64,000 nt of DNA from a virus. The stretch is taken from positions 96,001 through 160,000 of IMG/VR virus record IMGVR_UViG_3300003690_000003; one strand, written 5' to 3'. The notes beneath the pieces are model-generated. The model saw only the letters and a list, made by a program, of their open reading frames with translations, did no database searches and was not told where the DNA came from. Below, piece by piece: positions 50,871 through 54,709 of this stretch; position 1 is the stretch's first letter; the number at the start of each line of letters is the position of its first letter. The translations under genes and the position numbers were made by a program.

Positions 50871-51200
50871 CTACTTTTTAAAAAACTCACTATCAAGAAT
50901 TCCTTTATCATCAACATATATATCGGCGGCCGGCTTACCTAGAAAGAGAGCATGATATTTAAGACCCCACTCGTTTAGTTGATTTTCTGTAAAAGAATAC
51001 ATTTGTTTGTATGCCTCAATTTGATTGTTACTGCTTCTTCCCATCCCCCGCGCAGTCAAAAAAAATATTGTATGGCCATTCTGATATAGATCATTTACTT
51101 TCTGGATACGCTTCCGATCGGGAATTGAATTAATGTAATCGCTCCCGTTTGTCTGACAGATTGTTCCATCGATATCAAAAACATAAGTTATTTTATCCAC
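50871..51200 (-). CDS. Small HAD-family phosphatase (EcbF/BcbF-like)
   Basis: VFDIDGTIC, LTARGM, GKPAADIYVDDKG. Confidence 0.8.
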   Translation of the reverse strand: MDKITYVFDIDGTICQTNGSDYINSIPDRKRIQKVNDLYQNGHTIFFLTARGMGRSSNNQIEAYKQMYSFTENQLNEWGLKYHALFLGKPAADIYVDDKGILDSEFFKK

Positions 51201-51856
51201 TTATTAAAATCTCTTATAAACCCATCTACAGATTCATCAGTTTTTAAATGTTTAGTCGCCTTTTTAATTACTGAAGCAGAGGCCGTCACAATATGACAGC
51301 CGGCATCCCAACAGTCTTCTAAATCATATGCATTACGAATACTTCCAGCTATTATCTCACACTGCAGGTTGTTGATATCAATAAATTTTCTCGTTCTTTG
51401 CAACGCTTGAATCGCGTTTCCTTGGTTGTCCAAAACCCTATTATAAAATAGAGAAACATATCTGGCGCCGGCGGAGGCGGCTAGTTGCAACTGCGTGGCA
51501 GTAAAACAGCATGTACAGTTCACTCTAACTCCAAGCTGGAAAAGTTGATTTACCGCTCTCATTTCCTCAAACCCGACCGGTACCTTTATATTCACATTAT
51601 CATAATCAATTCTTTCAATAATCTTTAGCCCCTGCTTAATCATCTCATCAGGTTCTGTTGCGAAAACCTCAACAGAAACTGGTATTTTCTGTTGGTACTT
51701 TTTACAAAGCTCGCAAATCTGTTGGATGTGCGAATAGAAATCTGCCTTTGGTTCTTTTGAAAGTAAAGACGGATTGGTTGTTATGCCTTGCACTAACCCT
51801 TTTGACAATACTTCTTCTATCTCTTGTAGGTTCGCTGTATCGACAAATAATTTCAT
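51188..51856 (-). CDS. talC: Transaldolase (short TalC/FSA family)
   Basis: FVDTAN, GITTNPSL, SVEV, Schiff-base IKVP, VNCT, YVSLFYNR, GSIRN; retains the Glu and Phe that distinguish transaldolase from FSA. Confidence 0.9.
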   Translation of the reverse strand: MKLFVDTANLQEIEEVLSKGLVQGITTNPSLLSKEPKADFYSHIQQICELCKKYQQKIPVSVEVFATEPDEMIKQGLKIIERIDYDNVNIKVPVGFEEMRAVNQLFQLGVRVNCTCCFTATQLQLAASAGARYVSLFYNRVLDNQGNAIQALQRTRKFIDINNLQCEIIAGSIRNAYDLEDCWDAGCHIVTASASVIKKATKHLKTDESVDGFIRDFNKWIK

Positions 51857-52290
51857 TTTTTATCTTCCTCTAAATGTTTATACGTTTTCCCATCTTCAAC
51901 TATGTGGGAGTCCGCATTATCATCCAAAGTTGAAAACTCTATAATAACCGTATCCTCCAAAGCGATTCGCATATGCATAAAACCAGGCGGTATGTGAAAT
52001 ACATCTCCTTTATTTAAAATCAAAGAAGTATTTTTTGCTCTTCCGATTCGAGTCCCTACTTTGAGCTTTCCTGATTCAATATAATAAGATTCTTCCTTCT
52101 TTACATGATATTCCAGGCTACTTTGAGTATCCTTTCTCATAAAAATCCTTTTAACTGTATATTTATCATTTTCGAAAAGAGTTTTTATACTACCCCAATA
52201 TTTATCGATACTCTTTACTACACTATTAACCGGAGGCAGCGTGTGGCGACCATATTTAATTTCATTGCCCATAGTAACTCTTATCCCCAT
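51853..52290 (-). CDS. Cupin-fold sugar isomerase-like protein
   Basis: KYWG, SLEYHVKKEESYYIESG, HIPPGFMH, IEFST; the true start may be the ATG at 52272. Confidence 0.75.
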   Translation of the reverse strand: MGIRVTMGNEIKYGRHTLPPVNSVVKSIDKYWGSIKTLFENDKYTVKRIFMRKDTQSSLEYHVKKEESYYIESGKLKVGTRIGRAKNTSLILNKGDVFHIPPGFMHMRIALEDTVIIEFSTLDDNADSHIVEDGKTYKHLEEDKK

Positions 52291-52945
52291 GCTTTCTCAA
52301 AAAGTGTTTATTGATGATAAATTTTTCTAGTGTTGACTGCGGATTGAACAACAAGGTTTTGTATGCCATTTCTGCGACCAACTCTAAAATAAATGAATGT
52401 TGCAATGCGTTCTCGATTGTATTTCCCCAAACGAAAGAGCCATGCCCGGATATCAGACATGCCGCAACATCATTATAACTCAAACCAGACATTTTATAAA
52501 ATTTTGCAATAGTTTTGCCCGTATATTTCTCATAATTTTCTGTCACTTCATTTTCAGTGGGGTGACGGATACATGGTATTTCTCCAAAAAAATAGTCCGC
52601 ATGAGTTGTACCCAAACAGGGTATTGATTTCTGGGCTTGCGCAAAAATCGTAGCATATTTCGAATGTGTATGCACTATGCTATTGATATCTGAAAAGTTT
52701 TTATAAATCTCTAAATGAGTTGGCAAATCAACGGACGGTTTTCTACCGCTTATTAAAGTTTCATCCATTCTTACACTAGAGATTTCATCAATACTCAATA
52801 AATTCAAATCAGCTCCAGAAGGCTTTATATAAACTACGCTAGTATCTCTATCATAATAACTAACATTTCCCCAAGTTAAACTAACAAGACCCTTGTCGAT
52901 GATCCATTTGTTGGCCTTTAAAACCTCTTTCTTAATCGATCTCAT
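52262..52945 (-). CDS. araD: L-ribulose-5-phosphate 4-epimerase (AraD/UlaF/SgbE family)
   Basis: LTWGNVS, IKPSG, KPSVD.PTH, VHTHS, GTTHADYF.GEIPC, HG.F.WG and the diagnostic C-terminus KHFLRKHG..SYYGQ. Confidence 0.92.
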   Translation of the reverse strand: MRSIKKEVLKANKWIIDKGLVSLTWGNVSYYDRDTSVVYIKPSGADLNLLSIDEISSVRMDETLISGRKPSVDLPTHLEIYKNFSDINSIVHTHSKYATIFAQAQKSIPCLGTTHADYFFGEIPCIRHPTENEVTENYEKYTGKTIAKFYKMSGLSYNDVAACLISGHGSFVWGNTIENALQHSFILELVAEMAYKTLLFNPQSTLEKFIINKHFLRKHGDKSYYGQ

Positions 52946-53843
52946 TCAAATCCTCATATACTGGTGATACGGTACCTCTTTTTAAGGTGGACGCCGCGGC
53001 CCATTTATTACAAAAAGATAAATCTTTATCCTTGTAACTCATACTGAAAGCAGCCAAAAAAGAGTCGCCGGCGCCACATGTATCCACGGGCGCGACTCGA
53101 TATCCATCATGACACAACAATACATTGTTATAATACAGAATCGAGCCGGCGGCTCCTAAAGTGACACATATATTACTATTCAGATTTTTAGATAGTTTCT
53201 GCATGTGTTTATATGTAGGTTTAAAAAAAGGGCAGTTTTGTATTGCCTCTTCATGGTTCATACAAATAAAATCTGAGTTAGCAAAGTGGGGGTATTGATT
53301 CTTCCCATCAGAAATCTGTGAGCTGGAGATTACTACTGCCTTGTTGGTTTTAAAATATTCTATCAGGTCTTGAGTTGTCTTCTTATCATCAAAAAGGCCA
53401 TTTCTATAATCCGCTAAAACGACGGTGTCAACTTTTTGTTGAGCTACATACTTCTTTATAAGCTCTAAATCTGCTATGACAAGATTTCTTTTGTCGCCAC
53501 GATTTATTTGCAAATATTTATAGCTATGGAGTCCTTTTTTAATCCAAACTCTGCTTTTAACAAGATTTTCTCCCCTGTGTGCCAGGGGTTTAAGTATGAA
53601 GTTATCACTCTTCCAACCATAAAATAAGCCACTGTATTGATCTTCCCCTACGTTTGTAAAAAATGTAACGCGTGCTCCAAGTGACAACAAATTGTTTACT
53701 ACATTGGCAGCACCTCCAAAAGATACTTTTTCATCAACAAGCCTGGTTTTTAAAGTAGGAGTTTCTAAAGATAGACCTATACAATCACAAAAAAGATCAT
53801 GATCAACGATTGAATCTCCTAAAACTAAAATATTTTTTTTCAA
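52932..53843 (-). CDS. PfkB-family sugar kinase, HldE (RfaE) domain I-like
   Basis: ILVLGD..VD, GGAANV..NL.SLG, ADYRNG, VTLGAAG, VDTCGAGDSF. Confidence 0.85.
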   Translation of the reverse strand: MKKNILVLGDSIVDHDLFCDCIGLSLETPTLKTRLVDEKVSFGGAANVVNNLLSLGARVTFFTNVGEDQYSGLFYGWKSDNFILKPLAHRGENLVKSRVWIKKGLHSYKYLQINRGDKRNLVIADLELIKKYVAQQKVDTVVLADYRNGLFDDKKTTQDLIEYFKTNKAVVISSSQISDGKNQYPHFANSDFICMNHEEAIQNCPFFKPTYKHMQKLSKNLNSNICVTLGAAGSILYYNNVLLCHDGYRVAPVDTCGAGDSFLAAFSMSYKDKDLSFCNKWAAASTLKRGTVSPVYEDLNEID

Positions 53844-54709
53844 CTTTCACTCTTCTCCCAGCCTTTGTTTTGGTATATTTTCTTTATAACGTTGGTGGTA
53901 GAATAGTTTTCCAAGAGGGGATATATTTTTATATCAACTTTATCTGGTATCTTATCTCGGCGCCTTACCTCTTTAGCATTCCACTCCCCTCCCTTCACAA
54001 TAATAGATGGCTGTAGCTCTTCTATAATGCTTGCGCTTTCCAGTTCATCGTAAACCACCACTTCGTCTACTTCTTCAAGCGCCTCTAAAAGCTTTTTTCT
54101 ATCTTCTTCGTTATTAATGGGTCTATTTTCGCCCTTTAGCTCACGAACACTCCTATCCGAGTTGATACCAACAACAAGCTTATCTCCGAGAGACTTAGCG
54201 AATCTTAACAATCCTAGATGCCCAGCATGCAAAATATCAAATACTCCATTCGTAAAAACAATTTGTTTCTTTGTAGATGACAACTTCTCTACTCGTGCGA
54301 TATGTCTGCCTTCTCCAAAGTTAGTTTGTAGCCAAATATCTGTAATTTCAAAATTTTGTTCTTCCGTGGTAGTCCAACTTCCCAAACATAGTACATTAGA
54401 ATCGTTATGTTCACGACTCTTTGGCGCTGTCATAACATTGTGAACTAAGGCTGCCCTCACTTTATCAAATCTATTTGCGGCGATGCTCATACCAACACCA
54501 GTACCACAAATAAGAATACCCCTGTGAATATCATCATTGCTTAAAATCTGACACAATTGATTAGCGTAGTCGACGTAGTCCACTTTTTTAGTTTTATCAT
54601 AAGGTCCTATATCTATAACAATATACCCCTTCTCTTTAAGGTGGGTTCTAATTTTTTCTTTTAAAGTAATCCCGTTATGATCAGACGCCAAGCCTACAAT
54701 ATTCATCAA
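53840..54709 (-). CDS. RpiB sugar-phosphate isomerase fused to HldE (RfaE) domain II-like nucleotidyltransferase
   Basis: ASDHNG, GILICGTGVGMSIAANR, REHNDSNVLCLG, GRH..RV, then FTNGVFDILHAGH, GINSD.SV..LKG..RP and VKGGEW. Confidence 0.9.
   Translation of the reverse strand: MMNIVGLASDHNGITLKEKIRTHLKEKGYIVIDIGPYDKTKKVDYVDYANQLCQILSNDDIHRGILICGTGVGMSIAANRFDKVRAALVHNVMTAPKSREHNDSNVLCLGSWTTTEEQNFEITDIWLQTNFGEGRHIARVEKLSSTKKQIVFTNGVFDILHAGHLGLLRFAKSLGDKLVVGINSDRSVRELKGENRPINNEEDRKKLLEALEEVDEVVVYDELESASIIEELQPSIIVKGGEWNAKEVRRRDKIPDKVDIKIYPLLENYSTTNVIKKIYQNKGWEKSES

Follow-up and report, generated by a model that had tools for sequence, protein, structure and literature searches.

Two described pathways stand closest to the locus examined in the present study. 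In the ADP-heptose pathway, a ketose phosphate is converted to an aldose phosphate, phosphorylated at C1, dephosphorylated at the terminal position, and activated as an ADP-sugar. In the lincosamide GDP-octose pathway, the transaldolase LmbR heads a series formed by the isomerase LmbN, the kinase LmbP, the phosphatase LmbK, and the nucleotidyltransferase (NTase) LmbO. LmbR makes octulose-8-phosphate from ribose-5-phosphate, the product of RpiB, and is the sole characterized dedicated transaldolase of a nucleoside diphosphate (NDP)-sugar pathway known to us. The locus is a block of six genes in an uncultured, marine-type phage of 171 kb (IMG/VR record IMGVR_UViG_3300003690_000003; 170,861 bp, 94% complete according to CheckV). 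The window, i.e., the whole stretch of DNA analyzed, comprises 64,000 nucleotides and corresponds to bases 96001–160000 of this record. The block lies at 50871–54709 of the window on the minus strand and encodes an RpiB-NTase fusion, PfkB-family kinase, AraD-type epimerase, cupin, transaldolase, and small HAD phosphatase (Table 1). A sequence-only reading had described these genes as contiguous; this was confirmed, and their reading frames overlap or abut.

We propose that the block and its counterparts in other genomes, hereafter the cassette, encode a route to an ADP-heptose-like sugar that is primed by a transaldolase and a cupin and does without GmhA. We estimate the probability of this general architecture at approximately 0.75. 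Family membership and conserved residues were demonstrated, and all step activities are inferred from them. In the proposed route, RpiB would supply an aldopentose-5-phosphate, onto which the dedicated transaldolase would transfer a C3 unit from fructose-6-phosphate or sedoheptulose-7-phosphate; the octulose-8-phosphate formed has its precedent in LmbR. The cupin, predicted to be metal-dependent and similar to phosphomannose isomerase (PMI), would convert this ketose phosphate to a manno-type aldose phosphate, which is the task of GmhA or LmbN. The PfkB kinase would then phosphorylate C1, the small HAD would strip the terminal phosphate, and the HldC-type domain would form the ADP-sugar, which would pass to GT9-type and other glycosyltransferases. 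AraD would be an optional upstream add-on that converts xylulose-5-phosphate to L-ribulose-5-phosphate and may thereby alter or add to the pentose acceptor. The eight-carbon version of this route, in which an octose is built on a pentose-5-phosphate, is a more tentative proposal, to which we give slightly less than an even chance.

The families of the kinase, HAD protein, and NTase fit the phosphorylation, dephosphorylation, and activation steps previously assigned to them. The NTase part of the first gene scored 154.3 bits against TIGR02199 (rfaE_dom_II), slightly below the cut-off of 181.5, and its match in the PDB was Burkholderia HldC (5X9Q). The RpiB part scored 150.8 bits against TIGR01120 (rpiB), above the equivalog-level cut-off of 138.65, and scores as a genuine RpiB and not as LacA/LacB. 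The RpiB catalytic residues D10, H11, C68, T70, H101, N102, R135, H136, and R139 and the NTase motif YSTT were invariant in 14 homologues. Furthermore, N12, which adjoins the catalytic Asp-His, and W112 were invariant across 33 fused RpiB domains, while their housekeeping counterparts from these genomes show Ala at the N12 position (6/7) and Arg or Lys at the W112 position (5/7). The fusion has thousands of relatives, with 55–72% identity to phage, archaeal, and bacterial homologues, and RpiB is fused with one or two NTase domains. Metagenomic relatives with three domains include P0030 (NTase-RpiB-NTase) and P0008 (RpiB-NTase-NTase), and several cellular loci carry a separate second NTase gene. 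The first NTase of P0030 carries EGRSTT (STTR5), a motif tied by Tang et al. to CTP/UTP promiscuity.

The top NCBIfam model for the kinase was rfaE_dom_I (TIGR02198), at 91 bits with a cut-off of 345; the cellular orthologues reach 180–190 bits. A phmmer search of the PDB with the kinase gave no HldA match. The kinase is the least conserved member of the cassette (26–53% identity) and is predicted to act on the anomeric C1. In the small HAD, all four motifs are readable in the translation (DIDGT, LTAR, GKP, and VDD). The best model for this protein was EcbF/BcbF (TIGR01689), of the "capsule phosphatase" type. It scored just 20.5 bits against HAD-SF-IIIA (cut-off 44.6), which places it outside the GmhB-type HAD-IIIA class as defined by that model, and it would remove the terminal phosphate as an analogue of GmhB. 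The full length of AraD aligned with the E. coli enzyme (1JDI; 208 bits). We take the functional set of AraD to consist of the zinc ligands His95, His97, and His171, Asp76, the catalytic Asp120 and Tyr229, and the phosphate pocket (E. coli numbering). All of these positions are identical in the phage protein, except for Ser75, which is Val. Most cassette AraDs show the same pattern, while those of a small subgroup (L017, L020, and L023) are divergent class II aldolases without the C-terminal Tyr. The phage AraD is most likely a true L-ribulose-5-phosphate/xylulose-5-phosphate epimerase.

The cupin residues H62, K65, E67, Y69, and H106 were invariant across 23 homologues. H62, E67, and H106 form a His/Glu/His metal site within the cupin motifs, and the K-x-E stretch that K65 forms with E67 presumably resembles the HKPE zinc-site motif of type I PMI. 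An AF2 model (pLDDT 87) had Foldseek neighbors that included archaeal PMI (7ZVY/7ZVM), D-lyxose isomerases, the CapF epimerase cupin, and many generic cupins; the generic neighbors had TM scores of about 0.6, and the structure search does not fix the chemistry. The tight family around this cupin comprises 58 representative clusters at E ≤ 1e-30, mainly bicupins. We infer that the cupin is a ketose-phosphate isomerase that replaces GmhA.

The transaldolase, which is the only one in the phage genome, has the B. subtilis and T. maritima transaldolases as its nearest solved structures. It keeps the Schiff-base Lys (NIKVP) and the transaldolase-type Phe, and reads SLFYNR where canonical enzymes have SPFVGR. 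In cassette transaldolases in general, S[LI]F[YH][NC]R replaces SPFVGR beside the phosphate-binding Arg.

The sequence-only reading had seen no GmhA in the window and had allowed for a gmhA elsewhere in the genome. No match to SIS_2 (PF13580) or gmhA (TIGR00441) was found across the whole record, even at E ≤ 1. SIS_2 was also absent from a 100%-complete relative of 200 kb, from the cyanophage P-TIM68, and from nine of the ten small cassette-bearing genomes. These small genomes are metagenome-assembled genomes (MAGs), in which each single absence is weak. Taken together, the absences convincingly support the GmhA-independent route that had been proposed. Regarding HldD, no SDR epimerase was present among the Pfam-scanned open reading frames (ORFs) of 42398–59582, and tblastn with the HldD-like protein of P-TIM68 gave no match in the window.

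In comparison with the ADP-heptose pathway, the predicted order of reactions is shared, as are a PfkB-family kinase, a cytidylyltransferase-family NTase with an STT motif, and GT9-type transferases nearby. However, the cassette has a cupin in place of the SIS-type GmhA and a capless HAD of 109 aa in place of the GmhB-type HAD-IIIA. The window lacks HldD, and the cassette adds a dedicated transaldolase, RpiB, and AraD. Moreover, the cassette NTase is fused to RpiB and not to the kinase. In their commentary on Tang et al., the authors describe three HENase architectures: a mono-NTase, a kinase-fused NTase, and a GmhA-kinase-fused NTase (PMC11573728). The RpiB-NTase fusion is not among these three types.

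The analogy with the lincosamide pathway would lie in a transaldolase that heads an isomerase, kinase, phosphatase, and NTase series, and in RpiB as the enzyme that would supply the pentose-5-phosphate. In contrast, the SIS isomerase, GHMP kinase, GmhB-like HAD, and NTP_transferase of that pathway are replaced in the cassette by a cupin, a PfkB kinase, a small HAD, and a PF01467 domain. The expected product is an ADP-sugar with a beta-anomer rather than a GDP-sugar with an alpha-anomer, and the context is a glycan rather than an antibiotic. The cassette thus appears functionally like the Lmb set without being homologous to it, and the likeness to LmbR is one of pathway logic. A polysaccharide locus of an acidobacterial genome (L090; genome G003, contig C5, 723000–740566) carries a transaldolase, SIS_2, GHMP kinase, GmhB-like HAD, NTP_transferase, SDR, GT2, and WecG. 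It represents a full LmbR/N/P/K/O-like set outside an antibiotic cluster, and the same genome also carries the cupin cassette. In a Pelagibacteraceae cupin cassette, a transaldolase of the L090 type stands in for the usual one, which suggests that both kinds of cassettes start from the same ketose.

The check proposed at the outset, a search for the same six genes elsewhere, was run, and they were found in viruses and cellular genomes. Fifty-four IMG/VR contigs, ascertained with RpiB motifs, carry the cassette, 34 of them in the exact order RpiB-NTase, PfkB, AraD, cupin, transaldolase, and HAD. Gene-by-gene tblastn identified approximately 30 cellular loci with five or six of the genes together, and variants occur in at least 10 cellular phyla. 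The carriers include a Deltaproteobacteria MAG, Woese- and Pacearchaeota, a Methanosarcinales MAG, several phyla of the candidate phyla radiation (CPR), Acidobacteriaceae, Armatimonadota, Gemmatimonadota, Dehalococcoidia, Pelagibacter MAGs, and a Prochlorococcus single-cell genome. Since the same order recurs in these 34 viral contigs and the genes cluster in the cellular loci, the six-gene block is a conserved, horizontally mobile cassette, far beyond a chance neighborhood. Among cultured phages, a DNA-level search with the whole block gave no match and no RpiB-NTase fusion was found, with protein matches spanning one domain only. We found no description of the cassette or the route in the literature, and the "Sugar Lego" paper does not mention the cassette.

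The variants of the cassette form a nested series: cupin, kinase, HAD, and NTase, then transaldolase, then RpiB, and then AraD. In cultured cyanophages, the minimal set (cupin, PfkB, small HAD, and HldC) is accompanied by an HldD-like epimerase, and no transaldolase, RpiB, or AraD is adjacent. Three CPR loci (L041, L042, and L047) have an NTase without RpiB, a PfkB kinase, a bicupin, and a transaldolase. In most loci, RpiB is added as a fusion with the NTase, and AraD joins in approximately 70–85%. The cupin is the only member present in every variant. It is fused to the transaldolase in one CPR locus (483 aa, L042), to HAD_2 in L047, and to the small HAD in L018 and L028. The composition of the variants and the fusion mark the cupin as the universal companion of the kinase, HAD, and NTase and as physically coupled to the transaldolase. 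An isomerase role for the cupin after the transaldolase, as first suggested from the window, is likely on these grounds. We also considered RpiB as the substitute for GmhA and judged this unlikely because the three CPR cassettes and the cyanophage variant lack RpiB, while every cassette has the cupin. RpiB-family enzymes are not known to use ketoses of 3S,4R configuration, to which the products of transaldolases belong.

Gene clusters of the cyanomyophages P-TIM68 (gp191–197), S-SSM7, S-CAM1, and S-T4 share with the cassette the cupin (38–41% identity), the small HAD (45%), an HldC-type NTase (about 41%), and a PfkB kinase (26%). They differ in that an HldD-like epimerase is present, transaldolase, RpiB, and AraD are not adjacent, and talC, which is 36% identical, lies elsewhere. 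In P-TIM68 (L089; NC_028955.1, 169652–172261), the cassette cupin has its homologue in the protein labeled "cysteine dioxygenase", and the "phosphoheptose isomerase" (112 aa) has no SIS match and shares 45% identity with the small HAD. These GenBank labels recur in S-SSM7, S-CAM1, and S-T4, and Pfam backs neither of them.

The cyanophage evidence bears on whether the six genes form one pathway. Transaldolase, RpiB, and AraD may instead be auxiliary metabolic genes that boost flux through the pentose phosphate pathway (PPP) of the host, beside an unrelated nucleotide-sugar module, or the product may be a pentofuranose or hexose nucleotide. talC is common in cyanophages, 502 phage records match the transaldolase, and the families of RpiB and AraD belong to central or catabolic metabolism. 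However, cellular genomes from many phyla keep the genes side by side in an unchanged order, with their frames overlapping, and the RpiB-NTase and cupin-transaldolase fusions are covalent. We consider this explanation very improbable. The TalC of cyanophages has the same fold and belongs to the same subfamily, but the cassette transaldolase differs in its SLFYNR motif and in its setting in a sugar cassette rather than as a standalone gene among photosynthesis and PPP genes. It is only 36% identical to P-TIM68 TalC, compared with 46–71% to other cassette transaldolases, and it is syntenic in cells that also have a housekeeping transaldolase. Together with the cupin fusion in one CPR genome, these results favor the biosynthetic, non-auxiliary transaldolase of the sequence-only reading.

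The number of carbons in the product is less clear. The product may be an ordinary heptose: the cupin would isomerize sedoheptulose-7-phosphate in place of GmhA, the kinase, HAD, and NTase would finish the pathway, and transaldolase, RpiB, and AraD would be bundled PPP helpers that raise sedoheptulose-7-phosphate and make the cassette portable between hosts. We regard this as a credible but somewhat doubtful alternative. It agrees with the proximity of the NTase to the HldE-domain-II model, the rfaE_dom_I top model of the kinase, the GT9 neighbors, and the RpiB domain passing the rpiB equivalog cut-off. The cyanophage mini-cassette also points to a heptose, with its HldD-like epimerase (TIGR02197, 184.6 bits) and no adjacent transaldolase or RpiB. 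Transketolase is present in most cassette-bearing DPANN genomes, so that sedoheptulose-7-phosphate is available. The proposal that DPANN hosts lack transketolase and could only make a C8 product was rejected, as four of five further archaeal genomes have this enzyme.

On the other hand, the cassette transaldolase and RpiB coexist with a housekeeping transaldolase and/or RpiB in eight genomes (G001, G002, G003, G005, G008, G009, G011, and G012). The retention of dedicated copies in cells with a full PPP argues for a non-standard ketose and against an ordinary heptose, as does an Armatimonadota genome that has an adjacent canonical gmhA-hldE pair in addition to the cassette. The changed transaldolase motif and the invariant N12 and W112 of the fused RpiB, both family-specific changes in active-site regions, argue in the same direction. 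Furthermore, AraD leads away from sedoheptulose-7-phosphate; a supply module would be expected to bring Rpe or transketolase.

Several points weigh against the octose route. The HldA-like, HldC-like, GT9, and (in cyanophages) HldD-like signals fit an ordinary heptose equally well, and a simpler substrate is available in sedoheptulose-7-phosphate. Three Woesearchaeota genomes have no transaldolase other than that of the cassette, next to housekeeping transketolase, Rpe, and RpiB; there, it could simply be the transaldolase of the cell. The logic of dedicated genes also implies that RpiB is not needed merely for ribose-5-phosphate, and AraD has no clear role in a route from ribose-5-phosphate. 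Aldo-octoses are, to our knowledge, nearly absent from the bacterial glycans described. The kinase is far under the HldA family cut-off, and its target hydroxyl, like the activities and product of every step, is predicted from sequence.

AraD is the basis for a more specific eight-carbon route, which was the original proposal for this block. In that route, AraD would make L-ribulose-5-phosphate, RpiB would convert it to an L-aldopentose-5-phosphate, the transaldolase would build an octulose-8-phosphate with an L-configured tail, and the cupin, kinase, HAD, and NTase would yield an NDP-octose. According to our own Fischer bookkeeping, L-arabinose-5-phosphate would lead to L-erythro-D-manno-octose, a mimic of L-glycero-D-manno-heptose that is longer by one carbon. 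AraD retains its catalytic set, and for a phage, only the direction from xylulose-5-phosphate to L-ribulose-5-phosphate makes biosynthetic sense. Moreover, the window lacks HldD, so that an L-configured tail would need to be built in upstream, and a changed substrate is hinted at by N12 and W112 in the fused RpiB. No cassette has AraD without also having RpiB and transaldolase. This fits a linear upstream extension, and the nested distribution is in line with the proposed order of AraD, RpiB, transaldolase, and cupin; the evidence for this nesting is thin, with only three loci lacking RpiB and a viral set found by RpiB motifs, and the link between AraD and RpiB is in part an artifact of that search.

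Nevertheless, AraD as an obligatory step does not hold. Of the 54 viral cassettes, 47 include it, as do 19 of the 27 cellular ones; it is absent from five viral and eight cellular cassettes with RpiB and also from the CPR loci without RpiB. Its presence needs at least four changes when mapped on a tree of 27 RpiB-NTase proteins, and three of these are forced by well-supported branches. A class II aldolase is missing entirely from four small cassette-bearing genomes, and the Pacearchaeota genome G004 has the RpiB-NTase without any such aldolase. Most AraD-less cassettes are in genomes with AraD elsewhere, as found in three large genomes and one small genome (G010), and some losses may be compensated in this way. 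An association between AraD absence and an HldD-like epimerase was sought, and only weak SDR matches were found. An RpiB step on L-ribulose-5-phosphate was also not supported. Characterized RpiB enzymes are reported to need a 3R ketose, whereas L-ribulose-5-phosphate is 3S,4S, the fused domain scores as RpiB rather than LacA/LacB, and RpiB itself is missing from the three CPR cassettes. We consider this exact L-pentose route improbable. A broader proposal is a hitherto undescribed aldo-octose ADP-sugar, one carbon longer than the heptoses of lipopolysaccharide, in which AraD switches between an L- and a D-configured tail at the precursor level, as HldD does at the nucleotide-sugar level; we offer this only as a speculation that is rather unlikely to be correct.

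If the general architecture is correct, the heptose-type nucleotide-sugar pathway has a second, non-homologous start and run, with a cupin for GmhA, a minimal HAD for GmhB, and priming by a transaldolase, which has spread horizontally across viruses and both prokaryotic domains. It would account for HldC- and HldA-like genes in genomes without GmhA, correct recurrent misannotations in cultured cyanophages, and move at least one class of phage transaldolases from PPP-boosting auxiliary genes to glycan biosynthesis. Abundant microbes of ocean and soil, and the phages that infect them, may possibly display a new sugar on their surfaces. If the product is an octose, neutral C8 sugars would be widespread in the glycans of phages, DPANN archaea, CPR bacteria, SAR11 and Prochlorococcus strains, and Acidobacteria. 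ADP-heptose-type metabolites are agonists of innate immunity (PMC11573728), which makes the chemistry of close analogues of wider interest.

Table 1. Positions of the cassette genes and of surrounding features in the window
Feature	Position	Strand	Evidence
RpiB domain (~5-148) fused to HldC/HldE-domain-II-type NTase (~150-280)	53840..54709	-	PF02502 4e-49; PF01467 3e-20
PfkB-family sugar-phosphate kinase, distantly HldA-like	52932..53843	-	PF00294 6e-22
AraD-type L-ribulose-5-phosphate 4-epimerase (accessory)	52262..52945	-	Aldolase_II 8e-43; NF006047 AraD 269.6 bits (cut-off 257)
Monocupin	51853..52290	-	Cupin_1 2e-9; PMI C-terminal domain 25.7 bits (cut-off 23.6); weak D-lyxose isomerase match
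TalC/subfamily-5-type (TalC/Fsa-type) transaldolase	51188..51856	-	TAL_FSA PF00923 3e-47
Small capless HAD phosphatase, 109 aa	50871..51200	-	TIGR01689 EcbF/BcbF 1.5e-11
Two-domain glycosyltransferase, 590 aa	49092..50864	-	PF13524 (Glyco_trans_1_2) 6e-23; PF01075 GT9-like C-terminal half 24 bits (cut-off 22)
Conserved neighbor, 289 aa, family unassigned by profiles	54706..55575	-	Recurs beside the cassette in 12/54 viral loci
Two GT4-type glycosyltransferases	55572..58075	-	PF00534 4e-7 and 1.6e-12
Second nucleotide-sugar module (whole)	43939..49105	-	
Second module, PMI-type cupin	47583..47936	-	PF01050 7e-29 (strong)
Second module, NTP_transferase + APH-kinase fusion	46020..47582	-	
Second module, HAD, 120 aa	44704..45066	-	
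Second module, sugar C-methyltransferase-like gene	47933..49105	-	
Giant ORF, 4098 aa	16439..28735	-	
Giant ORF, 2526 aa	32595..40175	-	
ORF, 244 aa	58848..59582	-	24 bits, sub-threshold (cut-off 27.4), zinc-metalloprotease motif region of ATLF/M90 families only

Every long ORF of the window is on the minus strand, among them those for a primase, a baseplate-wedge protein, and PhoH. The cassette is enclosed in a glycan island of ~14 kb (43939–58075) that adjoins baseplate and fiber genes and contains at least three glycosyltransferases, a conserved phage-only module associated with glycosyltransferases, and a second sugar module. The two-domain glycosyltransferase directly next to the cassette is a candidate consumer of its product. 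Homologues of this protein flank the cassette in seven viral loci, and GT9 genes adjoin it in many cellular loci. The 289-aa neighbor on the other side had zero matches in Pfam and NCBIfam scans. In the ESM Atlas, it falls in phage-only clusters, and the same fold also occurs inside longer GT2/GT1 proteins; it is probably a glycosyltransferase-associated module. The phage may plausibly use the product, with the neighboring glycosyltransferases, for either virion decoration or modification of the host surface.

In addition to the genes listed in Table 1, the second nucleotide-sugar module contains two ORFs (323 and 251 aa) for which Pfam and NCBIfam gave no match. Its 120-aa ORF was considered as the N-terminal half of the cellular bicupin that the phage lacks; this was ruled out because the ORF is a HAD. 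The 244-aa ORF is probably a small phage metallopeptidase. The two giant ORFs adjoin the baseplate-wedge homologue; they probably encode fiber or structural proteins and are possible targets of glycosylation.

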